From: Lentisphaeria bacterium
GTDB taxonomy: Bacteria > Verrucomicrobiota > Lentisphaeria > Oligosphaerales > Oligosphaeraceae
Length of the DNA: 64,000 bases
Assembly (NCBI GenBank): GCA_016302315.1
Contig: JAEDNW010000001.1
Location: 3,332-67,331 of the forward strand
Reading direction: 5' to 3'
A program made the translations under genes and the position numbers. Each line of letters opens with the position of its first letter. Within the stretch, counting starts at the first letter, position 1. Under the pieces are notes generated by a model. It made no database searches and was not told the DNA's origin. It was given only the letters and a program-made list of their open reading frames with translations. Below, in pieces: positions 14,308 to 34,743 of the stretch.

Positions 14308-15011
14308 CGTTCCCAGAAGAGGTCGGTGAGGATTTCCAGGGCGGCCCAGGCGCGCTGTCCCTTTTGTCTGGCATATTTGGGATAGGTCACATGGACCGGG
14401 AGTTCCCGGAGGGTGAGATGATTTCGTCGGATCTGGAGGAGGATTTCCGTAGCATGAGCCATGCGGTCCTCCCGCAGTCGGATTTTCGTCAGGGCCTGGG
14501 GCGTCAGGAGTCGGAAGCCGTTGTGGGCATCCGTCAGCCAAAGTCCTGTCAGGACGCCATTGACCCAGCGGGCCAGTTTCAGGAGAGTCCGGCGGGAGGC
14601 GGGAATGACCTGGAGATCCTCCTGCCGGAGGAATCGGGAGCCCAGGATCACCTGGGCGCCGCTTTCCCGCTGTAGCTGCAGGGCCCGGGGGATGGCCGCC
14701 GCCTCGTGCTGTCCGTCGGCATCAAAGTGGATCACCGCCTGGGCGCCCTTTTCCCGGGCATAGTCCCCTCCCGTCTGCAGGGCGGCCCCCTGGCCGCGGT
14801 TGATCTCGTGACGGAGGATGGTCACCGGGAGGGACGGAAGAGCCAGAGGGACGGGAGAGCCATCGTCCACCAGCACCACGGAATATCCCTGCTCCACCAG
14901 GGGGCGGACTGTGCGTTCCACCACGGCGGGATCCTCCCGGTAGCAGGGAATGACCACGTAAATGTCCTGGGGTCTCCAGGGAGTCGGGGATGTCTTCGGG
15001 GCGCTACTCAT
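14298..15011 (-). CDS. family 2 glycosyltransferase
   Basis: 237 aa with IYVVIPCYRED...VVLVDDGS...FDADGQH, the classic GT2 (GT-A fold) DxD-type motifs. Confidence 0.85.
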   Translation of the reverse strand: MSSAPKTSPTPWRPQDIYVVIPCYREDPAVVERTVRPLVEQGYSVVLVDDGSPVPLALPSLPVTILRHEINRGQGAALQTGGDYAREKGAQAVIHFDADGQHEAAAIPRALQLQRESGAQVILGSRFLRQEDLQVIPASRRTLLKLARWVNGVLTGLWLTDAHNGFRLLTPQALTKIRLREDRMAHATEILLQIRRNHLTLRELPVHVTYPKYARQKGQRAWAALEILTDLFWERWL

Positions 15012-18000
15012 GGGAAGGCGTCTCCAGGAAATAGGCCCGTCCCATCTGCCACCTCTCCGTCCTTTGCCACCCTTCCGGCGTAGGAGCCCAGGAGGAGCCC
15101 TGGGGGGGCGTCTCCTCTCCCAGGAGAGGGCCGGTGAAGGGAAGACCGGCGGGGCGAGCAGACGCAGGCGTCAGCCTGAGGGAACCCTCCCCCTCCTCCC
15201 AGGCGGGCCCGGGCAGCACCCAGAATCCCGTTCCCCCGGGCAGAATTCCCTCTTCCCGGAGGGGCACAAAGGCCCCGTGGTCATAGACATAGATCGCCGT
15301 TGTGTCCAGGGCCTGGCGGAGGGCCGCCAGGGACACATCTCCCGGCAGAGACAGGGCGCTATAGCGTACCAGGGGAATCTCCTGCCAGCATCCCGCCAGG
15401 GCGGCCAGCATTTTTTCCTGGGGGGTAGCGGGAGCCTGGGGCGCCAGGGAGGCATCCCGGAGCAGAGCCGAGGAGACGGAGAGTTCCGGCAGGGGCTGGA
15501 GTTGGATCAGGAGGGTGGTTGCCGCCGTTTCCCCGGCCTGGTCTGTGACCCGGAGGGTGAGGGAATACTCTCCCGGGAGAGCCGTCAGGGGAGGCGTGAG
15601 GCGGAGCCATCCCTCCTGGCCTCCCTCCTGGCCCACGGTGACCCAGGCGGGGGATCCCTCGTCCAGAGAGTAGGTCAGCACATCGGGGGGATCGTCCGCC
15701 AGATCGGGATCCTGGGCGGACAGGGCGAGTTCCCGTTCCTCTCCCCCGGTGAGCGTGAGAAGCTGGGGGAAGTCCTGGGGCCAGCAAGGAGGATCATTCA
15801 CCGGGGTGATAGTGAGATTCCAGGCGGCGGTTCCCTCCCACTCTCCGTCAGAGAGTCCGAGAGTGAAGGAATCCGTTCCATGGAAATCGGGATTTCCCTG
15901 ATAGTAGACCCGGGGGAAAGAGAGGCGGGTATCGGGGGGAGCCAGGCGGAGCGTTCCCTGGGCGGGAGGGACAACCACCCAGAGGGCCACCCCGTCGCCA
16001 TCCTCATCCAAGAGAGGGGTGAGACGCAGATTGGTCTCCGGGGCATCCTCTGTCAGGGGATTCAAGGCGGTGATGGAGAACTGGGGGGCACGATTGGACC
16101 AGAGAGGATCCTCCCAGAGATAGAGATTCCAATGCCCATTTTCCGCCGGCTCCCTGCCCCCCTGCTCCATGTCCGCACAGGTGGAGAAGGCAATCTGCCT
16201 GCCGGAGGGAGAGATGGCCAGGCTTCGGGGAGGCAGCACAGCCTCCGGGGCCAGACACACCACCTCCGGAGAATCGGAAAGGAGATCCCACACCCCAACG
16301 CGTTGCCGGCTTTCTCCCTCTGGCACATAGAGGAAGGCCAGCCGACGGCCATTGGCGGAAAGGCAAAGCTGGGTAGCGTCCTCGGGGAGGGGAAGAAGAG
16401 TGAGGCGGGATGCGCTGGCCGAGAAGGGGGCCTGAAGGAGATAAAATGCCCCGCCCTCCTCCTGAAAGAGAACCTTCCCTCCATCCTGGGTCATGCCCCA
16501 GAGGACCGCGACGGAGCGGGGGCTAAGGGAGACAGGTGTGGCGCCGGCGCCTCCCAGGCGCCCCATGAGCTTCGTGCCCTCCTGCCAGAGGAGGGTGGTG
16601 CCATTGGCGGAGAGGAAGGGGGAAGTCGCGGAGGCGGAGAGGCTCTCCCAGGAAGCCCCCCCGTCGGAAGAGAAGCGGAGTTCCCCAGTGGCCAGCAGGG
16701 CGGCCACCGCCCCATTCCGGGAGACCGCCAGAGCCCCGGGTTCCTGGAGATGGGGAGAGGCCTCCACGCAGACCCCGTTGCGGAACAAGGCACCGTCCTT
16801 CTCCCGGATCCAGAAGGAGGCTTGGGGACAGCCTTGGGCCCAGGTCACGGCCTCCCCGGGGGAGAACAGGCTCCAGGAGGCCCCTGCATGGGTCTCCCGT
16901 CCGTAGAGGAAGGGTTCTTCCGCCGCTTCTCCCGCCAGCGGGGCATTGGTCACCGTCTGCAGCAGGCCGTCCTGGGGGAAGAAGAGAGCGGGATAGCGAT
17001 AGAGGGTTTCTGAGGAAGAGAGGCCATCCGTCAGGCATCGGAAATCCGTAAAGAGGAGGGTCAGGGCGCAGACATCTCCGGAATCCAGCCCCAGGCGCAG
17101 GATGACCTGTCCGGTCTTTCCTGGGGTTGTGGCCGCCACAGACCAGGGAAGAGTCTCCCGAGAGACCTCCTCCCCGGGAAGAATCTCCGCCCCTGTGGAG
17201 GAGAGAATCGCGAAGGGAACCGGGTCGGAGCCTTCCCCCATCTCCCAATGCAGGGTGGTGGTCTCCTCGCTTCCTCCTAGGCCAATTCCCAGGGAGATCT
17301 CCCGTCCTCCCGTAGGCACATGAACCAGGGAGTTCTCCACGCCGATCCTGGCGCCCAGATCCCGGGAGAAAAGCTCTCCTTCCTTGTCCAGCCAAGCCGC
17401 AAAGCGTCCATTGGGAGAGAAGAGGCAATGGGGGCCGGATTGGGCGGTGACCTCAGGGAACGAAAGCTCTTCCGCCAGAATCTGGAGGGCCTCCGCCTGT
17501 CGATCCCAGAGACAGAGGGTCGTCTCGGTGCGGAAGAGAAGGAAGCGTCCATCCTGGGAGAAGGCGGGTTCCCAGGCCTTTCCCGGGGAGATCCAAGAAT
17601 ATTTCCAGGTTCCGTCCTTTTGGAGGGTTGCCAGGCGGAGACGCATTCCCCGGGCGCCATCCACGGCGGGATAGGCCAAGGCGTCCCCGGCAGAGGAGGC
17701 GGCGATCCAGAAGAGATTGGCCTGATACTCCCCGGAATAGACCCCCAACTCCTGGCGACGCCCCAAAAGCTCCACCAGCGCATTCTCTCCCGTGGTCAGA
17801 TTCTGCCTCCGCAGGCCCATCTGCTCCTGCTCCTCCTGGGAGAGATAAACCAGCCCATCATCCGTTCTCACCGGGCGCATTCCCGTGTCCTTCGGCAAGG
17901 CCTCAACGATCTCCTCCGTCATCGCCCCCGGCCCCGAGGGCCAACGTCGCTTCCATAGACCCTCCCCAGCCCCCCGATAGACCCACAGCTCCCGATTCCC

Positions 18001-18435
18001 CTCCTCCTCCCGAACCCAAAGCTCTCTCCACGTGCTCTCTCCCATCATGGTCTGGAGACCATCCCCCCCTTGCCAAAGCAGGCGCATGACCCAATTCTGT
18101 CCCGTGGCATCCGTGGGCTCCCGGCGCAGCCCCCAAAACTCCCCCGCCTGAACGCCACTCCCCATGCGCAACACCCGCCAAGACCACCCAAAGGGATTGG
18201 GCACCGGCTCGCTGGCAAGGCAGGAAACACACTCCCCCGTCAATAGGGAAAGGGAATAGCCCCCCACAAAGGAATCCCCCTTCCCCGAAGGCGTCCCCCG
18301 AAACCACAACTCCCCCTTGTCTCCCAAACTCTCCAAGGATTGAATGCGCCCCACCCCCGCAACTTCCCACTGTCCTAAGGAAACTAGGGAAAAACAGAGC
18401 ATCAAAACCAAGATGAGTGGCAGAAATCGGCGCAT
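15004..18435 (-). CDS. secreted protein with TolB/PD40-like beta-propeller repeats and cadherin-like modules
   Basis: 1143 aa. Signal peptide MRRFLPLILVLMLCFSLVSLGQ. Repeated PD40-like strings (FSPNGRFAAWLD, FSQDGRFLLFR, LSANGRRLAFLY, ISPSGRQIAFST). VNDPP-delimited modules (TITPVNDPPCWPQ, DPDLADDPPDVLTYSL). Confidence 0.6.
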   Translation of the reverse strand: MRRFLPLILVLMLCFSLVSLGQWEVAGVGRIQSLESLGDKGELWFRGTPSGKGDSFVGGYSLSLLTGECVSCLASEPVPNPFGWSWRVLRMGSGVQAGEFWGLRREPTDATGQNWVMRLLWQGGDGLQTMMGESTWRELWVREEEGNRELWVYRGAGEGLWKRRWPSGPGAMTEEIVEALPKDTGMRPVRTDDGLVYLSQEEQEQMGLRRQNLTTGENALVELLGRRQELGVYSGEYQANLFWIAASSAGDALAYPAVDGARGMRLRLATLQKDGTWKYSWISPGKAWEPAFSQDGRFLLFRTETTLCLWDRQAEALQILAEELSFPEVTAQSGPHCLFSPNGRFAAWLDKEGELFSRDLGARIGVENSLVHVPTGGREISLGIGLGGSEETTTLHWEMGEGSDPVPFAILSSTGAEILPGEEVSRETLPWSVAATTPGKTGQVILRLGLDSGDVCALTLLFTDFRCLTDGLSSSETLYRYPALFFPQDGLLQTVTNAPLAGEAAEEPFLYGRETHAGASWSLFSPGEAVTWAQGCPQASFWIREKDGALFRNGVCVEASPHLQEPGALAVSRNGAVAALLATGELRFSSDGGASWESLSASATSPFLSANGTTLLWQEGTKLMGRLGGAGATPVSLSPRSVAVLWGMTQDGGKVLFQEEGGAFYLLQAPFSASASRLTLLPLPEDATQLCLSANGRRLAFLYVPEGESRQRVGVWDLLSDSPEVVCLAPEAVLPPRSLAISPSGRQIAFSTCADMEQGGREPAENGHWNLYLWEDPLWSNRAPQFSITALNPLTEDAPETNLRLTPLLDEDGDGVALWVVVPPAQGTLRLAPPDTRLSFPRVYYQGNPDFHGTDSFTLGLSDGEWEGTAAWNLTITPVNDPPCWPQDFPQLLTLTGGEERELALSAQDPDLADDPPDVLTYSLDEGSPAWVTVGQEGGQEGWLRLTPPLTALPGEYSLTLRVTDQAGETAATTLLIQLQPLPELSVSSALLRDASLAPQAPATPQEKMLAALAGCWQEIPLVRYSALSLPGDVSLAALRQALDTTAIYVYDHGAFVPLREEGILPGGTGFWVLPGPAWEEGEGSLRLTPASARPAGLPFTGPLLGEETPPQGSSWAPTPEGWQRTERWQMGRAYFLETPSHE

Positions 18436-18471
18436 GTCGTGGAGGATAATAAAAAAAGATATAACTTGTTT

Positions 18472-18499
18472 ATTATGAATATGCTATGACAATTTTCAA
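18472..18499 (-). promoter_or_regulatory. candidate sigma-70-type promoter (TTGAAA-N16-CATAAT) for the 1143-aa gene
   Basis: The minus strand reads GGTTGAAAATTGTCATAGCATATTCATAATAAAC. It lies in an AT-rich island 37-64 nt upstream of the ATG at 18435. Confidence 0.45.
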
Positions 18500-18560
18500 C
18501 CCTCTGGGGATTTTTTTAGCATTTCGAGAGAGAGAGAGGTGTGGTGGGGCAGAGAAACAG

Positions 18561-18594
18561 GAAAGGCGGAACCGGAGACCCGGTGCCGCCTTTC
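18561..18594 (-). terminator. rho-independent terminator ending the sigma-54 operon
   Basis: GAAAGGCGG/CCGCCTTTC (9 bp) plus ACCGG/CCGGT (5 bp) form a 14-bp stem with one mismatch and a 4-nt loop. The minus-strand tail is CUGUUUCUCU. It sits 67 nt past the OMP stop. Confidence 0.7.
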
Positions 18595-18660
18595 CCGACG
18601 AAGAAATTCCTCCGAGGCGGGGAGGCCTGGGAGGCGGGCTCTTCTCTCCCTAGGGGGAGG

Positions 18661-19647
18661 CTAGAAGCGCATTTGGAGCTTCATCATTCCGCCGAAGGAG
18701 TTGAGGGACTGGCTCACGTAGCGGGTGCCCACATCTCCCAAGCCCTTGTCATAGCGGAGTTCCGCAGAGAGGCCGATGGCCTCGTTGAACCAGTATCCGG
18801 CGCCGGCGGAGGCGTAGAGTCCCCAGTTGAACTCGGTCTCGTTGGCCCGATCCCGGTTTCCGATCCGCTGATCTCCCGTGGTGATGCCGGCATAGGAGGT
18901 GCTTTCCATGTCCGCCACAGAGAGGGTGGGGCCGGCGGCCACATAGGCCCGGAGGCCATTGTCCAGGTTGTAGCCCAGGGAGACGCCCAGATCCAGGACA
19001 TAGAGGTCCATGTCGAACTTCACCTTGCTGTCCAGGAGGACGGAACCGGCGCCGCCTTGGCCAGGGATCTTCACATCGGAGGGTGTGAACACGGAGTCCA
19101 CCTTGCTCACGAAGCGGTCATAGGAGGAGACGAAGGCTCCGGCTGCGCTGCCGCCGGCCTGGGTGCCCAGGGTGTAGTACTGGAAGTTAGCCACCAGCTG
19201 GAGATCCAGATTGTCCTGGCTCCACAATCCCGTGGAGAAGCCCACGGCGGGAGCCATCTGCTCCCGGAGGCCATAGGTGCCCCGGCCACTTCCCTGAGAG
19301 CCTTGGAGATCCCCGAAGGAGAGGCGATTGACGCCAGCATCCAGTCCGGGATAGCGGGAGTTCCAGGCCTTTTCCAGGTTCTCGTTGGTGGGTTCCAGAT
19401 AGCTTCCCGTGGCATCGTCCAGGACGAAGTTCTGGAAGGAGGGAGTGGCGCCGGACTTCATCTGGGGGCGATGGAAGTTCCGATAGGCGACGCCCACGGA
19501 GACCGTCCAGTCGCTTCCGGCCTCGCCCTGCTGGAAGGTGGGGGCGGCGGGCTCGCCCTGGGGGGCGGCGGGTTCGGTCACCGCCTCCTGGGCAAAGAGG
19601 GAAAGACTGGCCAGAAGGCTAAAGATCAGGAGCAGACTTTTCTTCAT
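18661..19647 (-). CDS. outer-membrane beta-barrel protein
   Basis: Start is MKKSLLLIFSLLASLSLFAQE at 19647, with AAGGAG 7 nt upstream. The sequence has alternating hydrophobic beta-strand character and is G/Y/S/N-rich. The C-terminal ...KLQMRF ends in an aromatic residue, as in OMPs. Confidence 0.7.
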   Translation of the reverse strand: MKKSLLLIFSLLASLSLFAQEAVTEPAAPQGEPAAPTFQQGEAGSDWTVSVGVAYRNFHRPQMKSGATPSFQNFVLDDATGSYLEPTNENLEKAWNSRYPGLDAGVNRLSFGDLQGSQGSGRGTYGLREQMAPAVGFSTGLWSQDNLDLQLVANFQYYTLGTQAGGSAAGAFVSSYDRFVSKVDSVFTPSDVKIPGQGGAGSVLLDSKVKFDMDLYVLDLGVSLGYNLDNGLRAYVAAGPTLSVADMESTSYAGITTGDQRIGNRDRANETEFNWGLYASAGAGYWFNEAIGLSAELRYDKGLGDVGTRYVSQSLNSFGGMMKLQMRF

Positions 19648-19764
19648 AGGAAATCTCCTTGTTGACATTTACGATTTGAGGAAAGGGAAATGAGTGTGGG
19701 GGGGGCAGAGGGAGGGGTGGAAGAAGCGGTCGCCTCTCCGCCCCTCCTGGGGCGCCCGGGAGCT

Positions 19765-22700
19765 CTACAGGCCGGGTTCCGGCTGCACCAGGTAGACCAC
19801 GTAGTCGCCGGTCTTCTCCCCATTCACGTAGGGCAGCAGCACCACATAGTCCCCCTCGGCCAGAGGCAGATCCTCCAGCACCTGGAGATCCAGGGCTCCG
19901 TTTTCCGTGATGATAGCGGGGCACTGGAATCCGTAGAACCACTTCATCTGGGCGATGGAGAAGTACTGGTAGTCGTAGGTGATCTGGATGGTGTCATCCA
20001 GGATGCCTTCGGTGTAGAGCATCATCTTGCCACTCACATCGTAGACCCCGGTGATGACGGGAGTGCGGGTGGCGGTGGCCAGGGTGAACTGCATCTGGGC
20101 GCTGGCGATGGCCTCGCTGCCCGCCTTGGCGGTCACATACCAGGTGTAGGTGGTGGCCTCTTCTCCCATGGGCAGCTCCAGGGTGAGGTTGTTGGCGGTC
20201 AGCCCGCTCACCTCTTTCACCAGCCGCCCATCGGGACCGTAGACCCGGATCATGTATTCCTGGGCGTTGGTGGCCACGGGCCAGGCGAACTTCACCGTCT
20301 CGGAGGTCAGCACCTTGCCATTGGCGGGAGCGAAGGCGGGGGCGCTGCCCCAGGCAAGTTCCTGGGCGGTGGCTTCCGGCACCTCGATGGTCAGGACGGC
20401 CGCCTCCTCCCCTTCTCCGGCGGGGTTGAAGCCCTGCACCATCAGGAGGAACTCGCCCGCTTGGGGAATCTGGAGCTCCTGCCTGGCGATGGTGGGCAGG
20501 ATCATGCCCTTCTCGTCCGCCTGGAAGTCCACGGGACCCACGCTCTGGAGGGTCTCCCCATTCTCATCCACCACCCGCATCCGATAGGACCGGGCCATGG
20601 GCACCTGGATCTCCGGGAGGGCAACCCAGCCATTTTCATCTGCGGTCACCCGATCCACGGCGCAGGTGGGCCGTCCAGGCAGTCCGTATTCGCCCACGGA
20701 GAGCTCCCGCTCCGCACAGACTTCCTCGGTGGTGCCATCGGTCATGGTCCACACCAGGATGGTCACCGTCACCTCGGTGTTCTCGGGATAGCCCTCGAAG
20801 CCGGCGGCGGCATAGTCCTCGGGCAGCAGCTGAGTGCGGCTCCCCTTCACCGTCAAGGCCAGGGTCTCCTCGTCGCTCTCCAGGAGGAAGGTGTGACCAT
20901 CGGCATGGGCCTCGGGATCCACGCAGGTGAAGGAGATGATGGGATACCAGGGGGAGGCGCCCACAAAGACCGTGATGGTCACAGGCTCGCTCTCCTGGGG
21001 ATCCTCCGCCTCGCCGGTGAACCCATTGTCCGTCACGGCGAAGGTGATGGTGGCGCTCTTGCCCAGCTCCGCCTCCTCCTTCACCGTGTAGGTCAGGGTG
21101 GCGGTGGACTTCTCCACGGTGATGACCGGATCGGACAGGAAGATGCTGTCGGGATCGGACACCTGGATGATGCGGCCATCGGAGAGCTCCTGTTCCTCTT
21201 CCCCAGGACCCATGTCCACGGAGAAGGTGGCGGTGAGTTCCTCGCCCCGCTGATCGGGCAGGACATACTGGTCTTCGGCCTTCACCACGGGAGCGTCATT
21301 CACGCAGGTCACCTTGAGGGAGATGACGGGCACCTGGAGGGCGTTGACGCCGGATTCATCCTTGGCGGAGACCACCACCTGGGGCATGGAGACGCCGTCG
21401 TTGAAGTAGTCCTTGGCGGGGGTGAAGGTGAGTTTTCCGGTGGTGGCATCGATCTCGATGGTGCCCACGGAGGCATCCAGGGCTTCCACAGCGTAGGTCA
21501 GGGAATCCACGCCGTCGGCCTCATCCACATCGTAGGCGTTCACGTAGAGGGACTGTTCCGTGGCGTCCTCGGCGATCTCCCAGACATACTCCAGGGGTTC
21601 CTCGGGCATCTCCGGATTGGAGGCCGTTCCAGGCTGCGTGCCCACGTGGTAGAAGTAGGGCGCAGTATTGCCGATGACCCAGGCGACAGCTTGGGAGAGT
21701 TCGGAGAAGACATTCTCCGCTCCTTCCCCGTAGGGGCTGGTGACGGCCCGGGAGGCCACCTTCACGGTGTATCCCTTCTTGATGGCGGCGGCAAGACTCA
21801 GGGTGTCTCCCTTCTCTCCCTCTCCATCCACCTCGGTGAAGGTCACCCCATCAGCGCTGTAGCTCCACAGATAGGCGTAGGTGATGGGGTCCCCGTCGGC
21901 GTCCACGGAGCCGGAGGCGTCAATCGTCAGGGTGTCTCCGTGGAAGGCTTCCCCAGGAGTCTGGTGGAGGATGGTAGGAACGGTGGGCGCGCGGTCCACA
22001 TCGTTGACCGTCACCGCCATATCCGCCGAGCCCTCGCCCTGGGTTTCCCCATCCACGGCGATGACCTTCACCGTGAACAAGTCGCTGGCGAGCCGGGAGG
22101 CGCCGCCCTCGGCAAGGGCGATGGTGTCATAGCCATTGCTGGTCACCTTCCAAGAAGCGCTGTAAACAGGAGTTCCGCTGCCTTGGGAGCCGGTCTCCTC
22201 GCTGATGGCCTGGTAGCTCCAGCCCTCGGGCACCTGGAGTTTCCAGGCGCCCACGCCGGCGGGATAGACATCGCTGTCCGTGGCGCTGGCCTTCACCAGG
22301 AAGGAGGTGGGGTTCCCTTCCGCGTCCACCTCGGCGATGGTGACACTGCTCTCTTCCAGGGTCACCACAGGCACGGGATTTTCCTTGAAATCCACCTCCA
22401 GGGTGTAGATTTGGCGGGAGGTTTCCTGGTCGGCATCGCCGATCCACACGGAGTAGCGGGCCTGGAGATCCTCGGTTCCGCCCAGGGCGGATTCGGGAAC
22501 GGTGAAGGTCAGGGTAAGGGTGGCCACATTCCCGTCGTCCTTCCGGTCGATGGTCAGGCCATCAGGCAGAGTGGAGGTGTCATCGTAGCCCTTGTTCACG
22601 GTGATGTCGTCAGCCCCATCCACATCGGTGACTTCCAAGGTGACGCTGCCGGTGAGCGTGCTTCCGCCCCGGCGGATGAAGATGCGTCCGCTGTTCTCCG

Positions 22701-24300
22701 CCAGTTCGGGGGCTTTGTTCACCACCTGGTAGTATCCGCGCAGGGCAGCGCCCAGGGTTCCGGAGGTGGCGGTGGCGACAGCCACCAGAGTCCTGCCCTT
22801 TTCCAAAGGAGAGGGAATCTGGGTGAAGGTCATCGCCGGCATGTCCTCGTAGAAGTATTCAAGACTCACCGTGACCTCGTCTTCCTCGTCCGCGTCCGCG
22901 GCCAGCACATCCGGGGTGAAGAGGGAGTCCGCCTGGACCTTCCAAGTACGAACCTTACCCGCCACGAGCTCCAGCATGCCGGAGATAGGCTTGGTTCCGA
23001 ACCCGGTGATCACCGGCGCAATATCCACATCCTTCACTATCGCGGGGATGCCGTCCAACGTCACCGCATAGGCCTCCTTGCCGCCGTCGGTGACCGAGAG
23101 GATTCCCGTGTACTCTTTCCGAGCGGCGGGATGCTTCACGGTGGTGTAGGGGATCACCAGATCCACCTGGGAGAAATCCACGCTGTAGGTGTATGTTCCA
23201 GGCTCCCGGTCGCTGGTGGTCACGGGGGTGAGGGTCACCGGGAAGGTGATGGTCTCCCCCTCTCCGTCCACGGGAGTGAAGGTCAAGGTGGCCTCGCTCT
23301 TCAGAGAGGGTTCCCGATCCACCTCCTCTTCAGAGAAATTCAGGTAGATGGCATCGCCCAAATCTTTCACCGCCTTGCCCTCGATGAGGACAAAGCTGGA
23401 GCCTTTGTTGGTCAGCGTGGGAATGTCATCCACATCGTGGACCGTCACGGTGAGGCTGCCTTTCACACTTCCCTTTCCCTCGGTGGAGGTGGCGGTGTAT
23501 TCCAGGGTGACCGTGCCGAAGAAATCCTTCTTCGGGATAAAACGGAAGCCGCCATCCGGAGTGAGAAGCACGGAGCCGGTGCCGGTGCTCTCCGTGGCCA
23601 AGCCGGCCATGGTGAACTTCACGGCCGTGGTGGGCACCAGGTCGGAGCCATTCCAGGCCGTGCAGGTGAAGACCTCGTCCAGGGGAGAGACCTCCAGGGG
23701 CACCTCTTCGTCCGTCTCGAAGACCGTGCCCTCCGCCACGGTGAAGTTGAATCCCTTCAGCATCATCACGCTGCCGGGGCCATTCACCTTCACCTTGTTG
23801 GCGTAGATGCCCGCGTTGGTGGACTGGGCGGAATTCAGCTTGTCAAAACCCACGGCGCCGCTGGAGTCCGTCCCATTGAGCAGATTGTGGTAGACGGTGC
23901 CCAGGAGCACCCGGTTGCTGTTGGCGGGAATCAGAATCTGGCCCACGCCGGCATTGGGATAGAGCTGGATTTTGGTGGAGGTCAGAACGGGGTTGTTCCC
24001 CTTGCCTCCCAGCACCTCCTCCCAGGTGATGCCCGCCCACTCCTGGGTGTCATCCCGGAGCAGCAGCAGATTCAGCATCTGGCAGTTGTTTTCGTCGGTG
24101 GTCAGATACACCTGGGTGGCGCCCCGGGTGGAGACGCCGTCGATGTATTTGCCTTCCAGGAAGGTGCCGTTCACCTCGGAGCCGGAGACCAAGTCGATGG
24201 TCCAGTCGGCCCGCACTCCCTGGGAAAGGAGAAGAGTGGCGGCAAGGAAGACCGCCCAGGCGGCTCCTTTGCGGAGAAATTCGGCAAAGCGGGAAATCAT
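19765..24300 (-). CDS. giant secreted adhesin-like protein with cadherin/Ig-like (VNDAP-type) modules
   Basis: 1511 aa. Signal peptide ...AVFLAATLLLSQGVRADW. Module boundaries are TVTVHDVDDIP, VKDVDIAPV, AVTVNDVDRAPT and KVTCVNDAPVV. The protein is acidic and T/V/E/G-rich, with AAGGAG 10 nt before the ATG. Confidence 0.65.
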   Translation of the reverse strand: MISRFAEFLRKGAAWAVFLAATLLLSQGVRADWTIDLVSGSEVNGTFLEGKYIDGVSTRGATQVYLTTDENNCQMLNLLLLRDDTQEWAGITWEEVLGGKGNNPVLTSTKIQLYPNAGVGQILIPANSNRVLLGTVYHNLLNGTDSSGAVGFDKLNSAQSTNAGIYANKVKVNGPGSVMMLKGFNFTVAEGTVFETDEEVPLEVSPLDEVFTCTAWNGSDLVPTTAVKFTMAGLATESTGTGSVLLTPDGGFRFIPKKDFFGTVTLEYTATSTEGKGSVKGSLTVTVHDVDDIPTLTNKGSSFVLIEGKAVKDLGDAIYLNFSEEEVDREPSLKSEATLTFTPVDGEGETITFPVTLTPVTTSDREPGTYTYSVDFSQVDLVIPYTTVKHPAARKEYTGILSVTDGGKEAYAVTLDGIPAIVKDVDIAPVITGFGTKPISGMLELVAGKVRTWKVQADSLFTPDVLAADADEEDEVTVSLEYFYEDMPAMTFTQIPSPLEKGRTLVAVATATSGTLGAALRGYYQVVNKAPELAENSGRIFIRRGGSTLTGSVTLEVTDVDGADDITVNKGYDDTSTLPDGLTIDRKDDGNVATLTLTFTVPESALGGTEDLQARYSVWIGDADQETSRQIYTLEVDFKENPVPVVTLEESSVTIAEVDAEGNPTSFLVKASATDSDVYPAGVGAWKLQVPEGWSYQAISEETGSQGSGTPVYSASWKVTSNGYDTIALAEGGASRLASDLFTVKVIAVDGETQGEGSADMAVTVNDVDRAPTVPTILHQTPGEAFHGDTLTIDASGSVDADGDPITYAYLWSYSADGVTFTEVDGEGEKGDTLSLAAAIKKGYTVKVASRAVTSPYGEGAENVFSELSQAVAWVIGNTAPYFYHVGTQPGTASNPEMPEEPLEYVWEIAEDATEQSLYVNAYDVDEADGVDSLTYAVEALDASVGTIEIDATTGKLTFTPAKDYFNDGVSMPQVVVSAKDESGVNALQVPVISLKVTCVNDAPVVKAEDQYVLPDQRGEELTATFSVDMGPGEEEQELSDGRIIQVSDPDSIFLSDPVITVEKSTATLTYTVKEEAELGKSATITFAVTDNGFTGEAEDPQESEPVTITVFVGASPWYPIISFTCVDPEAHADGHTFLLESDEETLALTVKGSRTQLLPEDYAAAGFEGYPENTEVTVTILVWTMTDGTTEEVCAERELSVGEYGLPGRPTCAVDRVTADENGWVALPEIQVPMARSYRMRVVDENGETLQSVGPVDFQADEKGMILPTIARQELQIPQAGEFLLMVQGFNPAGEGEEAAVLTIEVPEATAQELAWGSAPAFAPANGKVLTSETVKFAWPVATNAQEYMIRVYGPDGRLVKEVSGLTANNLTLELPMGEEATTYTWYVTAKAGSEAIASAQMQFTLATATRTPVITGVYDVSGKMMLYTEGILDDTIQITYDYQYFSIAQMKWFYGFQCPAIITENGALDLQVLEDLPLAEGDYVVLLPYVNGEKTGDYVVYLVQPEPGL

Positions 24301-24369
24301 AGGGTGATGACTCCTTACAGTTGTAGAGAAGAAAAAAGAAAAAAGGGAGGGGAAGACGCTGCCAGGCCG

Positions 24370-25674
24370 CTATTTTTGAGAACCGAGGCTTTGGAGCGTC
24401 TCCAGGGCGGCCTGGAGGCGTTCCTGGGAAGCGTTGGTGGTGAAGGGCTGCAGGTCGGCGGCCGCGAACCAGTCGTCCTCGGGGGTGGGGCAGCCGGCCC
24501 CCACGAAGTTATAGAGATACATGGCGTCGTCCATGTCCACCTCTCCATTGCCGTCGAAATCCAGCTGGGAGGGGAGTCCCTGGAGGGTTTCCAGGGCGGC
24601 CTGGAGAAGCTCCCAGGTGGCGTTGGTGGTGAAGGGCTGCAAGTCGGCGGCCACGAACCAGTCGTCCTCAGGAGTGGGGCATCCGGCGCCCACCAGATTG
24701 TAGACATACATGGCGTCGTCCATGTCCACCTCTCCGTTGCCATCGTAGTCCAGGGTGCCGGAGGGGAGGATGACCCAGTTGACCGTGGCTATCCTCTGGT
24801 CCTCCTCGTCGAAGAGGGAGGCGGCGATGGGCTTGTATCCGCCCTTCAGGGCCTGGGCGGCGAGGGTGACGCTGGTGCTTCCCTCCCCCAGGGTGATGGT
24901 GGCATCCTCCCCGTAGCTAAGGGCGGCGGCCCCGCCTTTCACCTGGAGGATCCAGCCGGTTTCCGGAGCCTGTCCGGAGGTGGTGCCGTCGGCGTAGTGG
25001 TAAGTCCCGTAGATGTCCTCCAGGGTCACGGGATCGGTGTTTCCGTTCACCAGCTTCAGAGTGAGGGTCTGGGCGGTGGTGGCCACCTGGGTCTCCTCCC
25101 CCGTGAAGCTCGTCTCCCCTTCCGCCCGGTCCAGGAAGACCACCACATTGGCGGGATCCTGGGCGGGAGTGATGGGGCTGCCATTCCGGGTCTTGCGCAG
25201 GGTGTAGTTCACCCCGGCCTTGGCGGAGAGGGAATAGGGGAGGGTCACCTCCTGGGGCTCTCCCCCTGGGGCGTCATCCTGGGTGAGGAAGAGAACAATC
25301 TCCTCGCTCTCGCCATCGGCGGCCTGGAGGGTCAAGCGGGCGTCCGTGGCGGCCACCAACACCCAGGCATTCTCAGCGGAGGCGAGGCGCAGGTCGGTTC
25401 CCAAGCGGGCCAGATCCCCGCTGACGTTGGCAACTCCCCCCAGATTTTCGGGGTGGGCCAGATAGACGTCCTTCACCCCGAACATGGCGGAGAAGGGAGG
25501 GAAGGGAACGGTTTTGGCTTCCGTCGCCTCCCCGAAGATCAGGGAAGGGGATTGGGTTTCCCCTCCCATCATGACATGGATGGTGAACGCCCCCGCCGCC
25601 TGCGTCCACACACAGGCGAAAAGAACAGCGGCGAGAAGAAAGCTATGCTTCTGAATCATCTTCGTGTGTCTCAA
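24370..25674 (-). CDS. secreted protein with two C-terminal dockerin-like (EF-hand loop) repeats
   Basis: 434 aa. Signal peptide ...FLLAAVLFACVWTQAAGA. The C-terminus holds two copies of LD(Y/F)DGNGEVDMDDAMY.YN.VGAGCPTPEDDWF.AADLQPFTTNA...LQAALETLQ. Confidence 0.65.
   Translation of the reverse strand: MRHTKMIQKHSFLLAAVLFACVWTQAAGAFTIHVMMGGETQSPSLIFGEATEAKTVPFPPFSAMFGVKDVYLAHPENLGGVANVSGDLARLGTDLRLASAENAWVLVAATDARLTLQAADGESEEIVLFLTQDDAPGGEPQEVTLPYSLSAKAGVNYTLRKTRNGSPITPAQDPANVVVFLDRAEGETSFTGEETQVATTAQTLTLKLVNGNTDPVTLEDIYGTYHYADGTTSGQAPETGWILQVKGGAAALSYGEDATITLGEGSTSVTLAAQALKGGYKPIAASLFDEEDQRIATVNWVILPSGTLDYDGNGEVDMDDAMYVYNLVGAGCPTPEDDWFVAADLQPFTTNATWELLQAALETLQGLPSQLDFDGNGEVDMDDAMYLYNFVGAGCPTPEDDWFAAADLQPFTTNASQERLQAALETLQSLGSQK
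24373..24753 (-). repeat. tandem in-frame duplication of about 189 nt (63/64 codons)
   Basis: Example of nucleotide-level near-identity: 24521 atggcgtcgtccatgtccacctctccattgccgtcgaaatccag versus 24711 atggcgtcgtccatgtccacctctccgttgccatcgtagtccag. The protein copies differ at only a few positions. Confidence 0.85.
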
Positions 25675-25827
25675 GGGATAGAAAATGGTGGAAAGGTCGA
25701 GAATACAGGCGGTTCGCCCCCCAGCATGAAGGCAAGTCCTGTACTATAAGCGAACGGAGGGAAAATTTTGGGAGGGAGGGAAGGAGAGAAAACGCCTCTC
25801 CCCAACCCTATGTGGTGTACACCCTTT

Positions 25828-26832
25828 TCAAGGAAGGACGTATCCCGTGGTCCATTCCGGCAACCCGGCGGCTTTGACGAAGGCGCCCTGCTGCGGGTTC
25901 CAGCGGTAAGCGTTCTCGGGAAGGGATTTTTGGGGAGGGGAAGGCGCCCCGTCCTCCTGCCACTGGCCCACCAGCCCCTGGAAGCGTCGGGCGCCCCCCG
26001 TCTCGGAGGAAGGGAAGGCCGTCTCCGCGCCCACGCGCCCCTTCCCTTCCAGGCAGAGTTCCAGCCCCTCTTGGGGGGCGTAGATCCAGAAGGCCTGGCC
26101 GGCGGCCAATTCCTCCAGGGAGGCTGGCCTGGTCAGGGTGCGGGGCAGGAAGGTGGCCACCCGGGCACTGGCGAGCAATTCCTCTTCTCCCACCGTGGCC
26201 TGGGAAAGAAGCTCCACATTGCAAGAGACAAGATTCCAGCCGGGCTCCAGGGGGATCTCCTGGACCACGTCCTGATACCGGTAGGCATTGGACACTTCCA
26301 TGGTCATGGTTCCCCGCAGCAGGGAGCAAGTCAGCGTTGCCTCCCCGGAAGTCAGTCCATCCCACCGCATCAGCTCTTCCCCTTCGGGGCTCCACAGCAC
26401 CATCTGCGCCCCCTCCGGCATCTCTCCCTGGCGAAGGCGCAGGGAAAGCTGGCATGCCTCGCTCTCCTCGGGCTGGGAGAGGACGATGGTCCACTTCTGG
26501 GAGGCCTGTTCCAGCTTCAGACAGGGAAGAACCATGGCCTGGTAGAATTTGGCGCCATGGGAAAGCACCAGGCGTTCGTCATGGTCGGCATCCGGAGAGC
26601 CGGGGGGCGCCACCCAGTTGTCCTCCGCCGACAACTTCTCCCCCAGAGCCAGAAAGACGCTCTGGCTTTCGGTGGGGAAGTGGGCCGTCAGCTCCCAGAT
26701 TCCCCGGATTCCGGTCTGGGCGGCAAGGCCCGGAGGCAGAGCCGTCTCCTGTCCCATGACAACGACGCTACAGGGGAGCAAGGCCAGCCACAAAACCAGC
26801 CCCAGTTTTCTTATTTCTGAGAAAATTTTCAT
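25828..26832 (-). CDS. secreted protein, function unknown (first gene behind the sigma-54 promoter)
   Basis: 334 aa with signal peptide MKIFSEIRKLGLVLWLALLPCSVVVMGQE. I recognise no family. Confidence 0.55.
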   Translation of the reverse strand: MKIFSEIRKLGLVLWLALLPCSVVVMGQETALPPGLAAQTGIRGIWELTAHFPTESQSVFLALGEKLSAEDNWVAPPGSPDADHDERLVLSHGAKFYQAMVLPCLKLEQASQKWTIVLSQPEESEACQLSLRLRQGEMPEGAQMVLWSPEGEELMRWDGLTSGEATLTCSLLRGTMTMEVSNAYRYQDVVQEIPLEPGWNLVSCNVELLSQATVGEEELLASARVATFLPRTLTRPASLEELAAGQAFWIYAPQEGLELCLEGKGRVGAETAFPSSETGGARRFQGLVGQWQEDGAPSPPQKSLPENAYRWNPQQGAFVKAAGLPEWTTGYVLP

Positions 26833-27005
26833 TTTTGTCCATCCGCATGCCGGGGTGCCTGCAGCGGCCCGCTTCCGGCGATTTCAGACACAGGTGGGGG
26901 AGAGGGATGAGGTCAAGAGGAATCCCGAAGCCCTCCGGAGCATTTTCCAGGGAGTCCCCGCCCCTTCCGTCTGCCCGGTCTGCTCTTGTCTTTAAGAGGT
27001 TGAAA

Positions 27006-27023
27006 AGCAACCACCATGCCAAT
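27006..27023 (-). promoter_or_regulatory. sigma-54 (-24/-12) promoter
   Basis: The minus strand reads TTGGCATGGTGGTTGCTTTT, that is TGGCAT-N5-TTGCT against the consensus TGGCAC-N5-TTGCW. It has exact GG/GC spacing and a single C>T deviation. It lies about 164 nt upstream of the ATG at 26832 and is divergent from a sigma-54 activator gene. Confidence 0.65.
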
Positions 27024-27277
27024 CTTCGATGCCTCCTCCCGGGAAGAAGGGAATCCCATGGCGCATTTTCCATAATGTATGCTTCCGACCACCGGATGGC
27101 CCCTGGGGGACAGGAAGTTTTTCCCCCCTGCCCCGCCGGCCGGAGACTTTCCCGGGATTCCCTGTCGCTGGGCGGGAAGCGCCACCTTGCCAAGCCACGT
27201 GGCGGGGACCAGGGAGCGGGGCGTCGGATTTGTCCTGTTCTGTGCAATCCTTTTAGAATAGGATACATTATCGCCCT

Positions 27278-28690
27278 ATGTCTGAAGAGTCAAGCCAATC
27301 CATGGGGAGCGGTCCCTTGCGGGTCCGGATTCTGCTCTTGGAAACGGACGAAGGCCGCGGAGAGATTCTCCGGGGTCTTCTACGGAACCAGGAGTGTCGG
27401 GTGCGCACGGCATCCCAGCCGGAGGAGGCGAGGGAGTTGCTGGCGGCGGGGGGATGGGACGCAGTATTTTGCGACATTCGGCTATCCCAGGTGCTTCCTC
27501 CCGGCCTCTCCGATTCCGGCGTCTGTCCCGTCTTCCTGCTGACCAGCTACGACGCCATGTCCCAGGCCCAGGAGCTCGTAGAGCGAGGGATGGCGATGCA
27601 ATGGATTCCCACCCCCATCCGGGCGGAGAAATTGCTTATGTCCCTTCGGGCAGCCCTGAGGGGTCGCGGGGAGATCCCGGGGGGGGATGGAGAGCCAGGG
27701 AGAGAGAGGAAGTCGGGGGAAGAAGGGGGAAGCAGCAAAGATATTCGCCGTCATTTTGGGCTGATGGTAGGGGAATCGGAGCCCATGCAGGAGTTGTATC
27801 ATCAGATCGAGAAAGTCGCCGATTCCGACATGTCCGTTCTGATCCTGGGGGAGAGCGGCACGGGGAAGGAACTGGTAGCCAAGGCCATCCACCAGGCGGG
27901 GAGACGCGGAGGAAAGCCCTTCATCCCTGTCAATTGCGCCTCTCTGCCGGAAAACCTTCTGGAGAGCGAGCTGTTTGGATACGTCAAAGGAGCATTTACG
28001 GGAGCCGTCCGGGACAAGGACGGCCTTTTTGTTGCCGCTGACGGCGGCACTCTTTTCCTGGACGAAATCGGCTCCATTCCCCTGGCCACCCAGATAGCCC
28101 TGCTCCGGGCCCTGCAGGAGCGGGAGGTGCGTCCTGTGGGTTCCACCCAGCCCCGTTCCGTGGATGTCCGGGTGGTGGCCGCCACCAACGAGAACGTGGA
28201 GATGCTCCGGGAGCAGGGGCGCATCCGCCAGGACCTCTTCTACCGCATCAGCGCCTTCCCCCTCCATGTTCCCCCGCTCCGGGAGCGTTCCGGCGACCTT
28301 CCCCTTCTGTGCCAGGCCATTCTGGAGGAGCGGAGCAAAGGGGCGGTCCCCCTTCAGCTTTCCCCTGCCGCCCGGCTTCTTCTGGAGCGTCACCGCTGGC
28401 CGGGCAACATCCGGGAGCTCATCCACGTGCTGGAGCGGGGCGCCACCCTGGCGGAGCAGGGTCTCATCCGTCCCCGGGATCTACCCAGGGAGCTGGGGGA
28501 AGCCGGCCAGGAGCTGCCGGAGCCCCCTGCCTCCGCTCCCTCCCTCACCCTGAAGGCCTACCTCCGGCTCTGTGAACGGCAGTTTCTGAAGAAGGTGCTG
28601 GCGGAACAGGGAGACGACAAGGAGAAGGCGGCGAAAATCCTCGGCATCAGCGTGGCCACCCTCTACCGGAAGCTTTCCGATGTCTCCTGA
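27278..28690 (+). CDS. sigma-54-dependent transcriptional activator (receiver-AAA+-Fis HTH) with an atypical receiver domain
   Basis: 470 aa. Walker A is GESGTGKE, and GAFTGA is present ([10 protein letters not shown]). The C-terminal HTH is [19 protein letters not shown]. The receiver has the acceptor Asp (AVFCDIRL), but the conserved Lys-Pro is replaced by Thr-Pro (WIPTPI). Confidence 0.88.
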
Positions 28691-28703
28691 CTCGACTCTG
28701 CCC

Positions 28704-29192
28704 ATGAAACGCCATTTTCTCCCCTTTCTCCTTCTGGCTCTTCTCCCCTTGTTCCTGGCCACCTCCTGCCGGACCTACACCCCCGCCTTTGTCCTCTCTC
28801 TTCACGAGTTCGCCGATCCCCAGATCAGCACCCGGCTCAACAAGCAGGTGCGCAACTCCAACCGGGAATGGCAGTACACCATCCAGAACTTCCCCTTCAT
28901 GGATGCCCGGGACTTCCTGGGAGGCGAGCTTTACGGCCCCGATGAAAACGGGTGCTATGGCCTCCGGATCCAGGTGGACATGTGGTCCCTGAACCGGATG
29001 CACCACACCGCCGGCGCCAACCTGGGCCTGCTCTTCGCCGTGGTGGTGGACGGCACCTATGTGGGCGCCTCCCATTTCACCCCGGAGATGCGGGACGAAG
29101 ATGTCCTGGTTCTCGAACCCATCTGGAATTTCTACGACGCCACCCGGATCCTGGAAAATCTGGAAGACAATCGGAACCACCTGCGCCCCTAG
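28704..29192 (+). CDS. lipoprotein, function unknown
   Basis: MKRHFLPFLLLALLPLFLATSC carries a lipobox (LATS|C). About 162 aa, with no recognisable family. Confidence 0.55.
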   Translation: MKRHFLPFLLLALLPLFLATSCRTYTPAFVLSLHEFADPQISTRLNKQVRNSNREWQYTIQNFPFMDARDFLGGELYGPDENGCYGLRIQVDMWSLNRMHHTAGANLGLLFAVVVDGTYVGASHFTPEMRDEDVLVLEPIWNFYDATRILENLEDNRNHLRP

Positions 29193-29312
29193 CCTTCCCC
29201 GTTGCCCCCTTTTCCCTTTTTCGTTCACTCCATCCGGCCCCTCTGACACCCCGCTCCCTCCCGGGAACGGCAGCGCCAGAGACGCCATTCCACGAGCAGC
29301 CCCCCAAATCCT

Positions 29313-31469: not shown

Positions 31470-31738
31470 TCGTCGCCTCCCCCACCCCCTCCTCCCCCTC
31501 TCCGCAGCCCGGGGGGGAGGAAGGGGACCCTTTCGGGGGAAACAAGCGTCTTCTGTCTCCCCTCGCCGGAGATTTCCGGAAGAAAGAGGGGAGATGTCCC
31601 TAAAATTCAGAGAAAGCCCCTGTCTTCTGCTTGGCGAAGGTCGGGGAGCAGAGTATATTCCTGTTTCGCACCTGCTCCTTCCTGGCCCTTTCCCCTCCTG
31701 CCCCGTCTTTGGAAGGACACGGACCCCCCTTCGCCTTC

Positions 31739-34640: not shown

Positions 34641-34743
34641 TCCTTCCCCGGGGACTCCCCGGCCCCTTCTTTATCCCATGACTTCGGCGCCCTGCCCCTT
34701 CCTTCCCGGGAGGGAGGGGGCGCCGTTGCGCTTTTCCCGTCCC

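Follow-up and report, generated by a model that had tools for sequence, protein, structure and literature searches.

Gene order and transcription signals of the locus

A 64-kb stretch of DNA from a Lentisphaeria bacterium (GTDB family Oligosphaeraceae; assembly GCA_016302315.1, contig JAEDNW010000001.1, positions 3,332-67,331 of the forward strand), here called the window, contains four successive genes on the minus strand, g1 to g4, which were identified by open reading frame (ORF) listing and translation. They are preceded by a promoter of the sigma-54 type and followed by an intrinsic terminator, and a gene for an NtrC-family enhancer-binding protein (EBP) is oriented divergently from them (Table 1). 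The source is an uncultured, Oligosphaeraceae-like member of the Lentisphaerota from gut or rumen, and the G+C content of the region is about 62-64%. On inspection, the N-termini of the four products combine a basic n-region, a hydrophobic core and a small-residue cleavage motif. An earlier reading made from the DNA letters alone (the sequence-only reading) had assigned signal peptides to all four and had listed the same genes, with g2 at 434 aa. This length does not hold: the g2 ORF spans 24370-25674 when it is started from a TTG, but the ATG at 25659 is favoured by the homologues and by a public gene call (P0005) and yields 429 aa. The g4 ORF covers 18661-19668 (335 aa) when counted from its first ATG. 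An ORF of 166 aa on the minus strand (26768-27268), which is annotated by some gene callers, was rejected as almost certainly spurious, because it spans the sigma-54 promoter and an indel-rich region that is poorly conserved in relatives.

Table 1. Genes and regulatory features of the g1-g4 locus, in window coordinates (TSS, transcription start site)
Feature	Position	Strand	Description
g1	25828-26832	minus	334 aa
g2	24370-25659	minus	429 aa from the ATG at 25659
g3	19765-24300	minus	1511 aa
g4	18661-19647	minus	328 aa from MKKSLLL
Sigma-54 -24/-12 promoter, TGGCATGGTGGTTGCT	27006-27021	minus	TGGCAT-GGTGG-TTGCT, no mismatch to TGGCAY-N5-TTGCW
Predicted TSS	near 26995	minus	from promoter position
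Predicted 5' leader	26833-26995	minus	about 163 nt, from promoter position; poorly conserved
Intrinsic terminator	18557-18598	minus	12+5 bp GC-rich hairpin, then TGTTTCTCT
EBP gene, divergent	27278-28690	plus	470 aa, NtrC-family sigma-54 enhancer-binding protein
Site A, ATAATGTATGC	27072-27082	plus	centred about -82 from the predicted TSS; candidate upstream activating sequence
Site B, ATAATGTATCC	27261-27271	minus	between -10-like hexamer and ATG of the EBP gene; candidate autoregulatory operator
Candidate sigma-70-type EBP promoter	27230-27259	plus	TTGTCC-18-TAGAAT, 9/12 consensus matches
Lipoprotein gene	28704-29192	plus	162 aa, LATSC lipobox
g5	15004-18435	minus	1143-aa exported protein; Big_9, PD40, He_PIG (Pfam)

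The promoter sequence is the sole exact match to TGGCAY-N5-TTGCW in the window, and its GG and GC doublets are 10 nt apart. The sequence-only reading had recognized the element, although its interval of 27006-27023 was two bases too long. When up to one mismatch was allowed, three matches were found in the window versus 2.6 expected; within the window, the site alone is statistically unremarkable. Its significance derives from its conservation across relatives rather than from window statistics. A g2 profile scan of 185,579 species genomes returned 19 loci, all of them plausibly Lentisphaerota, and the gene order in the relatives was determined by tblastn with the window proteins. In the 422,073 bp of related Lentisphaerota loci scanned for the promoter, the exact pattern was present once per locus (20 occurrences), always on the operon strand and at the operon head, compared with about 0.8 chance matches according to a uniform-base estimate.

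In an alignment of five sequences representing four relatives, TGGCAT and TTGCT form invariant islands between a variable spacer and variable flanks. The 5-nt spacer reads GGTGG, GGCCG, GCCCA or TCTTC in close relatives and AGTGC in locus L008 (related loci are cited by L numbers), and across about 11 lineages the box is invariant while the spacer varies. L011 and L022 carry the variant TGGCAC-N5-ATGCC. The box is located 50-190 nt upstream of g1 in the related loci; in L023 it lies 74 nt before a divergent g1, and in L027 and L030, which are devoid of g1, directly before g2 (74 nt from the g2 ATG in L030). The promoter is retained in these two genomes and even where the activator gene is not adjacent. 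The presence of sigma-54 in the organism is implied by two EBPs with a GAFTGA motif encoded in the window, and RpoN is reported for both Lentisphaerae genomes surveyed in Table 1 of PMC3372290. The predicted sigma-54 dependence of g1-g4, which the sequence-only reading had put forward, is supported by the conserved box at the operon head in the related loci. Rfam returned nothing over 18000-29500, neither a known riboswitch nor a known leader in the 163-nt untranslated region, and literature searches on Lentisphaerae with sigma-54 and on Oligosphaera with dockerin yielded nothing relevant to the locus.

The terminator hairpin begins 64 nt past the g4 stop codon, and a 116-nt tail folds at -61.7 kcal/mol (z = -4.8). 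It had been described as the strongest terminator in the window, which is essentially right, but strictly speaking a scan of every 42-nt window of the two strands places it third (-32.1 kcal/mol). Among the top 25 hairpins listed, only this one and one other combine with six T in the tail window. Its tail, UGUUUCUCU, is weaker than the U6-8 of the relatives. A GC-rich hairpin with a U-run was found 3' of g4 in 11 of the 11 related loci that were folded, with lineage-specific stem sequences; the structure of the terminator is conserved, its sequence is not. The most stable 42-nt hairpin (31485-31526, -35.0 kcal/mol) is a G/C-homopolymer-rich palindrome without a T tail after a GreA-like gene, and the second (34685-34726, -34.2 kcal/mol) is terminator-like with a T-rich tail and follows a DUF481 gene.

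Neither a hairpin with a U-run nor a sigma-70-like match was found in the spacers g1-g2, g2-g3 and g3-g4 (153, 69 and 96 nt), and a consensus scan detected no sigma-70-like site on the minus strand from 18660 to 27000. An A+T-rich stretch follows the terminator, and a sigma-70-like sequence, TTGAAA-16-CATAAT (18472-18499), precedes g5, which is linked to the operon but is predicted to be a separate transcription unit. The reading of the locus as one promoter-to-terminator unit of about 8.4 kb, already proposed from the letters alone, is strongly supported, as both predicted ends are conserved amid diverged surroundings and nothing terminator-like or sigma-70-like was found between them. It is the best-supported part of the analysis because it combines the conservation of promoter, terminator and synteny.

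The divergent activator and its candidate binding sites

The EBP matches the Pfam families Sigma54_activat (PF00158, 233 bits), AAA_lid_14 and HTH_8 (31.5 bits, gathering score 22), and its GAFTGA motif and the Walker A sequence GESGTGK are intact, which confirms the earlier assignment as a sigma-54 activator. The recognition helix of the helix-turn-helix (HTH) domain is invariant among EBP orthologues. The best NCBIfam match is NorR with 330 bits versus a cut-off of 476; because the scores are far below every equivalog cut-off, the protein is not considered an orthologue of any named EBP. Response_reg scored 28.3 bits and remained below its gathering score of 30.2. The acceptor Asp of the receiver, D66 (FCDIRL), and the acidic pocket E22/D24 (ETD) are conserved in all orthologues. 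The invariant receiver Lys is replaced by Thr in the window (WIPTPI) and by Ser in L008, L014, L015 and L020, so that the Thr-Pro pair noticed beforehand in place of Lys-Pro has a counterpart in every orthologue. At the beta4 Thr/Ser position, the window protein alone has Thr, and every orthologue has Ala. Compared with a canonical CheY-like receiver, the Asp is kept, but the Lys and, in the orthologues, the beta4 residue depart from the canonical set.

A second EBP in the window served as a control. A kinase gene with PAS, HisKA and HATPase domains (41478-42677) is followed by an NtrC-type EBP gene (42686-44122, plus strand), whose product has a receiver of 98 bits with DD, D, T and K-P present (LTKPV), as well as GAFTGA and HTH_8. 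This pair is canonical and NtrB/NtrC-like as judged from its domains and motifs. No kinase was encoded by the ten flanking ORFs scanned around the operon (12197-34640), in agreement with the earlier statement that none is adjacent, and the nearest one is the kinase paired with the second EBP. Because the Lys (and, in the orthologues, the Thr/Ser switch residue) is missing and no kinase gene is located nearby, the activity of the divergent EBP is probably not set by the canonical Asp-phosphorylation switch.

Degenerate receivers are known from the EBPs/response regulators FleQ and FlrA, which keep the fold without the full set of phospho-switch residues; FleQ is devoid of the acceptor Asp. A degenerate receiver fold of this type implies control other than a canonical two-component phosphorelay. 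By its receiver sequence, the EBP described here belongs with this minority. It differs from FleQ in the retention of D66, in the lack of an evident FleN-like partner or link to c-di-GMP and in its non-flagellar target.

The intergenic region between g1 and the EBP gene contains both copies of an 11-mer, ATAATGTATSC, which matches exactly twice in the window (0.13 expected) and in mutually inverted orientation (sites A and B, Table 1). The sequence GCATACATTATGG is invariant in the window, L001, L004 and L007 inside a variable region, and L006 differs by one base. L008 and L017 carry one-base or one-indel variants at both 11-mer positions: CATATTATGG was found at the site A position in both and TAATTTATCC at the site B position in L008. 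The core of site B is invariant in the alignment of the relatives. The same holds for the complement of the EBP -35 box, GGACAA; the -10 box is less conserved. The EBP gene is divergently adjacent to the operon in the window, L008/L017, L014, L015 and L020, with 60-88% identity of the EBP.

That the divergent EBP is the cognate activator, as the sequence-only reading had assumed, is moderately supported. The assignment is based on adjacency in one clade, where it extends over five lineages, and on the shared 11-mer; distant genomes in which the promoter is kept and no EBP gene was found in the available flanks speak against it. Lineages in which no EBP gene is adjacent carry conserved blocks of their own upstream of the -24 box: L023, L024 and L025 share TTGAATAAAAAAT...CCATTGGATAAATT and TTTTGAGGAACT, and L027 and L030 share GCGCTTGMAAGCYATACAAACGAAACTATATTCATA and CAATTTTGCAAAAAAAAC. 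Different activators or upstream activating sequence (UAS) elements may serve the same sigma-54 operon in other lineages, as the upstream sequences suggest.

Directly 3' of the EBP stop codon lies the lipoprotein gene, whose product is 69-88% identical in relatives and has no Pfam match. It accompanies the EBP gene in every lineage with an adjacent EBP (L008, L014, L015, L017, L020) and is probably co-transcribed with it; a role of the lipoprotein in signalling input is possible but unsupported. The next gene (29313-31469, plus strand) encodes 718 aa with GreA/GreB N- and C-terminal domains in the last about 160 residues and an N-terminal extension of about 560 aa without a Pfam match. It is conserved beside the EBP-lipoprotein pair in relatives.

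The encoded proteins and their relatives

The order g2-g3-g4 recurs in 16 loci, with g2 identities as low as about 30%; the sequence-only reading had proposed a comparison of the four genes and the EBP across related genomes. In most of these loci g1 precedes g2, and 13 related loci also carry a g5 homologue behind g4. By this distribution, g2-g3-g4 forms the core of the system. The anticipated protein families were partly found in Pfam: OMP_b-brl_2 in g4 and Big_9 in g3 scored above threshold and Dockerin_1 in g2 below it, and g1 had no match. None of the five proteins g1-g4 and EBP has an NCBIfam equivalog.

For g1, neither a Pfam nor an NCBIfam family was found, and homologue searches returned just 4 clusters from 5.8 billion proteins and 16 representatives from a set of 1.84 billion. 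The AlphaFold2 model (mean pLDDT 83.6) is all-beta with two beta-sandwich domains. A Foldseek search of the g1 model against the PDB returned generic sandwiches only (E >= 0.05). For the g1 and g2 models together the matches to PDB entries were likewise generic beta-sandwiches with a TM-score <=0.24, among them Fab, MG domains of alpha2-macroglobulin, the adhesins Epf and SdrG and a sialidase carbohydrate-binding module, and no family was assignable. As g1 is absent from L027 and L030, an ORF upstream of the promoter in L030 was considered as a displaced g1 and rejected (hhalign probability 0.2%). Judged by its distribution, g1 is an accessory component that is dispensable in some lineages.

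The g2 family comprises 21 related clusters. The protein combines a beta-sandwich with a conserved N-terminal domain (FPPFSAMFGVKDVYL) and with a pair of 62-aa repeats (about 24385-24770). Each repeat has a predicted 12-residue Ca2+ loop of the form DxDxNGxxDxxD (D-Y-D-G-N-G-E-V-D-M-D-D) followed by a helix. In the AlphaFold2 model (mean pLDDT 72.7), the central sandwich and the C-terminal helical repeats are confident. The protein had been called dockerin-bearing. This applies to the single EF-hand/F-hand loop of each repeat, for which "dockerin-like" is a fair term, but membership in the dockerin family fails on score and architecture: Dockerin_1 (PF00404) reached 20.3 bits with a gathering score of 22.9, a precomputed PF00404 match exists in only one g2 homologue (P0014), and no cohesin was identified with the g1 and g2 models. 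Profile matches to PDB entries were weak (E about 0.3) and comprised the dockerins 2jnk/2ozn and 4uyp as well as S100B EF-hands. Family members carry one or two repeats. The two copies in the window are nearly 90% identical by eye, and in other lineages the copies are more alike within a protein than between orthologues; the repeat sequences suggest concerted evolution or a change in copy number by unequal recombination.

The 1511-aa protein g3 is acidic (isoelectric point 4.1). It matches Big_9 with 34.2 bits (gathering score 23.6), and Cadherin_5, CshA_repeat and a tandem-95 repeat were detected below threshold. Linkers of the cadherin type are present (DVDDIP, DVDRAP and VNDAP; DVDD.P). The protein is classified by sequence as having cadherin/Big_9-type repeats, and an adhesive role is predicted. 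In g4, an N-terminal linker rich in Pro, Ala and Glu precedes a domain that matches OMP_b-brl_2 with 35.3 bits (gathering score 27). It ends in KLQMRF with a C-terminal Phe, and substrates of the beta-barrel assembly machinery (BAM) usually end in Phe. When the family alignment was scanned crudely for period-2 amphipathicity, seven segments were flagged, which were read together with inspection as about 8-10 strands with long loops. The g4 family consists of 23 clusters, and all named ones belong to the Lentisphaerota (Oligosphaeraceae, Lentisphaeria, Victivallales). Sequence searches of the PDB gave no match for g3, g4 or g5, and PADLOC returned nothing, so the locus is not a known defence system.

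Around 15235-25056, nucleotide identity between the window and two related metagenome-assembled genomes (MAGs; L014 and L020) is mosaic. In comparison with MAG261 (L014), the EBP gene, the stretch between it and g1, g1 itself and the 5' half of g2 are 52-88% identical. Between the middle of g2 and the g5 end, most 300-nt windows reach 94-99%, with lower values of 68-89% where g2 meets g3 and g3 meets g4; the gene after g5 is back at 81-88%. Against MAG281 (L020), a step in identity from 33-85% to 95-100% lies at about 24760, and this contig is interrupted within g3. No comparable step was seen for L015. The tract from the C-terminal part of g2 (g2C) through g3 and g4 to g5 may reflect either recent inter-species recombination or chimeric metagenome assembly.

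The only cultured carrier is Oligosphaera ethanolica DSM 24202 (L026, NZ_JAUSVL010000001.1, 1475270-1496631), which has a variant locus. It encodes an uncharacterized 465-aa protein, a 527-aa g2-like and a 2374-aa g3-like protein and is devoid of g4, of an exact -24/-12 box and of an adjacent EBP gene. Genes of the glycoside hydrolase (GH) families GH39 and GH31/melibiase and for a CHASE-PAS hybrid kinase flank it.

Proposed mechanism and competing explanations

The locus as a whole is probably best explained as a sigma-54 unit with its activator and an envelope or surface fibre as cargo. In the proposed mechanism, E-sigma54 would reside in a closed complex on TGGCAT-N5-TTGCT, and an NtrC-family activator, most likely the divergent EBP, would bind site A about 82 nt upstream and open the promoter via ATP hydrolysis and its GAFTGA loop. 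The second, inverted 11-mer overlaps the EBP's own promoter, which suggests autoregulation. A single mRNA of about 8.4 kb would cover g1-g2-g3-g4 and end at the terminator hairpin. All four products would be exported by the Sec system. In the outer membrane, g4 would form a small beta-barrel of the BAM type. Cadherin/Ig-like repeats would make g3 an acidic rod that binds Ca2+, g2 would carry one or two EF-hand/dockerin-like Ca2+ modules, and g1 would be an accessory protein of two beta-sandwiches. The most likely function would be a conditionally expressed adhesive or ligand-capturing fibre complex of the envelope or surface, with g2-g3-g4 as its core and g5 as a partner. The layout of the locus, the conserved promoter, terminator and gene order, the intact catalytic core and degenerate receiver of the EBP and the paired 11-mer are direct observations. 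In this scheme we infer the TSS, the co-transcription, the identity of the activator and the location and physical association of the proteins. The outer-membrane-anchored surface assembly that the sequence-only reading had proposed is a plausible hypothesis.

Several observations weigh against this explanation. No component of a type IX secretion system (T9SS), two-partner secretion, a type I secretion system (T1SS), an usher pathway or PEP-CTERM sorting was found in Pfam and NCBIfam, and an export route through the outer membrane is not evident. By the crude strand estimate, the g4 barrel looks too small for a translocon, which weakly favours a role as an anchor. The N-terminal segment of g2, the most conserved part of the protein, was modelled with low confidence, and no cohesin was among the top Foldseek matches of the g1 and g2 models. 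The candidate UAS is a short motif with one half-site-like copy near the promoter. No EBP gene was found in the available flanks of L021, L022 and L025 (about 10 kb upstream) and L023 (about 2 kb); all four keep the sigma-54 promoter, and their upstream regions are devoid of the ATAATGTAT motif. Since the promoter is kept without an adjacent EBP, the adjacency in the clade of the window could be a lineage-specific juxtaposition. Finally, the RpoN box is absent from the six-frame translations of the window, so rpoN is not encoded there.

Among the competing explanations, a rather unlikely one is that the products form a glycan- or nutrient-capture apparatus of beta-sandwich binding proteins at the surface or in the periplasm, similar in function to SusE/F or the surface glycan-binding proteins (SGBPs) of Bacteroidota, which is switched through sigma-54 by a carbon or nitrogen signal and is not an adhesin. 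Lentisphaerota of gut and rumen are glycan degraders, and sigma-54 EBPs often control nutrient use. The GH39 and GH31/melibiase genes beside the variant locus of O. ethanolica and the sialidase carbohydrate-binding module and B. ovatus SGBP-B among the weak Foldseek matches of g2 would fit such a role. However, these matches are generic beta-sandwiches (TM-score <=0.24), none of the genes of the canonical operon encodes a transporter, TonB-dependent receptor or glycoside hydrolase, and a cadherin-like repeat rod such as g3 is a typical adhesin feature.

There is similarly a limited chance that the proteins stay within the envelope as a periplasmic scaffold or stress structure, or one associated with the inner leaflet of the outer membrane. 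The apparently small barrel of g4, the TolB-like PD40 repeats of g5 and the absence of autotransporter, TpsB, T1SS, T9SS and usher components in the Pfam and NCBIfam searches are in accordance with this. Very acidic, Ca2+-binding cadherin-like giants, on the other hand, are typically extracellular, and the near-identical g2C-g5 cassette in diverged lineages resembles the exchange of surface-exposed determinants.

It is improbable, but in keeping with the four loci named above without an EBP gene in the available flanks (L021, L022, L023, L025), that the operon depends on sigma-54 and is served by an EBP encoded elsewhere, so that the divergent EBP would regulate other targets such as itself or the lipoprotein gene. 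The EBP, lipoprotein and GreA-like genes travel as a block of their own, and the window encodes a second EBP. This second EBP, however, is paired with its own kinase and located 15 kb away, the divergent adjacency recurs in five lineages at 60-88% EBP identity, and an inverted copy of the 11-mer over the EBP promoter stands at about -82 of the sigma-54 promoter, with no further match in the 64 kb. A chance origin of the -24/-12 match and of the apparent operon, with sigma-70 promoters possibly in front of each gene, would agree with the window statistics (3 matches versus 2.6 expected at <=1 mismatch). It is very improbable given that about 11 lineages share the invariant box around a variable spacer, that the box has a single exact match per 20-kb locus and moves with the operon head where g1 is absent, and that no sigma-70-like site was found on the minus strand from 18660 to 27000.

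The preferred explanation, a sigma-54 unit with envelope or surface fibre cargo, combines familiar regulation with unfamiliar products. As judged by sequence comparison, the cargo families are undescribed and restricted to the Lentisphaerota, and the regulation follows the pattern of a classical divergent bacterial EBP (bEBP)/sigma-54 unit. It shares with zraR-, atoC- and pspF-type units the GG-N10-GC promoter, the AAA+ activator with GAFTGA, the Fis-type HTH, a candidate UAS about 80 nt upstream, an activator gene facing its target and a probable autoregulatory site. Unlike in these units, the EBP has Thr or Ser in place of Lys, the beta4 switch residue is gone in the orthologues and a cognate kinase gene is lacking. 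The statement that this is not a described system agrees with the tiny, Lentisphaerota-only families of g1, g2 and g4 and with the lack of matches in NCBIfam, PADLOC, Rfam, PDB sequences, Foldseek and the literature. In the PVC (Planctomycetes-Verrucomicrobia-Chlamydiae) superphylum, the Chlamydia sigma-54/CtcC regulon comprises membrane and secreted proteins and not nitrogen metabolism. CtcC has a canonical receiver, the kinase CtcB and no DNA-binding domain, and its target genes are unrelated to g1-g4.

With regard to the cargo, membership in T9SS, two-partner secretion and PEP-CTERM systems was rejected, as no defining domain was found. T9SS is a system of the Bacteroidota. The sprCDBF genes reportedly encode two smaller accessory proteins, a giant repeat adhesin and then a dedicated beta-barrel outer-membrane protein (OMP) of about 330 aa. 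The order of g1-g4, with two accessory proteins, a giant repeat protein and an OMP, parallels this layout, which is an analogy and not membership. The sprCDBF operon is not known to be regulated through sigma-54. A sequence relationship is lacking: g4 has no PorP/SprF match and g3 no C-terminal domain (CTD) of the T9SS, and neither PorP_SprF nor Por_Secre_tail nor a type-B CTD was detected at E up to 0.1 in Pfam and NCBIfam. The operon of sprC, sprD, sprB and sprF was assigned to Flavobacterium johnsoniae according to the entry for Rhodes et al. (2011; PMC3021240) in the reference list of PMC12635249. With cohesin-dockerin assemblies (cellulosomes; FIVAR-dockerin toxin complexes of Clostridium perfringens), g2 shares the F-hand, a 12-residue Ca2+ loop plus helix. 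It differs in having one F-hand per 62-aa repeat instead of two tandem 22-residue segments within about 70 aa; S100B EF-hands score equally, and the host is a diderm. Systems of type Vb and Ve likewise couple an Ig-like or repeat adhesin genetically to a beta-barrel of the outer membrane. In contrast to type Vb, g4 has neither POTRA nor a ShlB-type Omp85 domain, its barrel is about 270 aa, and g3 is devoid of a TPS domain; in contrast to intimin and invasin (type Ve), barrel and passenger are separate polypeptides.

A more specific version of the preferred explanation would combine export and/or anchoring of the g3 rod by g4, docking of a partner by the Ca2+ modules of g2, an orphan activator without a phosphorylation switch and recombinational exchange of the cassette among co-resident species into a new, Lentisphaerota-specific fibre system, in which g1 and g5 are accessories. 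In this full form it is doubtful. Its g4-g3 route would be functionally parallel to SprF-SprB or TpsB-TpsA and evolutionarily unrelated to both. Gene regulation and cell-surface structures are barely known in the Lentisphaerota, a PVC phylum that is common in animal guts and rumen and mostly uncultured. The locus supplies a firmly predicted promoter that about a dozen lineages share, a candidate activator-operator pair and lineage-restricted envelope cargo and may therefore serve as an entry point to the switching of surface and adhesion properties in this group. A self-contained fibre assembly module would be an adhesin-plus-OMP architecture not known before, distinct from the type V, T1SS and T9SS routes. 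If the locus is merely a conditional adhesin operon, its value lies mainly in annotation, as four families of hypothetical proteins would gain a context and a regulator.

Two observations concern public records. In the MAG records, three contigs with this operon (L017, L018 and L031) go under Bacteroidaceae, Anaerovoracaceae and Pusillimonas; contamination of the bins or mis-binning of the contigs is the probable cause. For g2 (TTG start) and the EBP (first ATG), look-ups of the exact sequence gave no match, because the public calls use other start codons; on the contig of the window, some of them give g1 only 309 aa and the EBP 462 aa.

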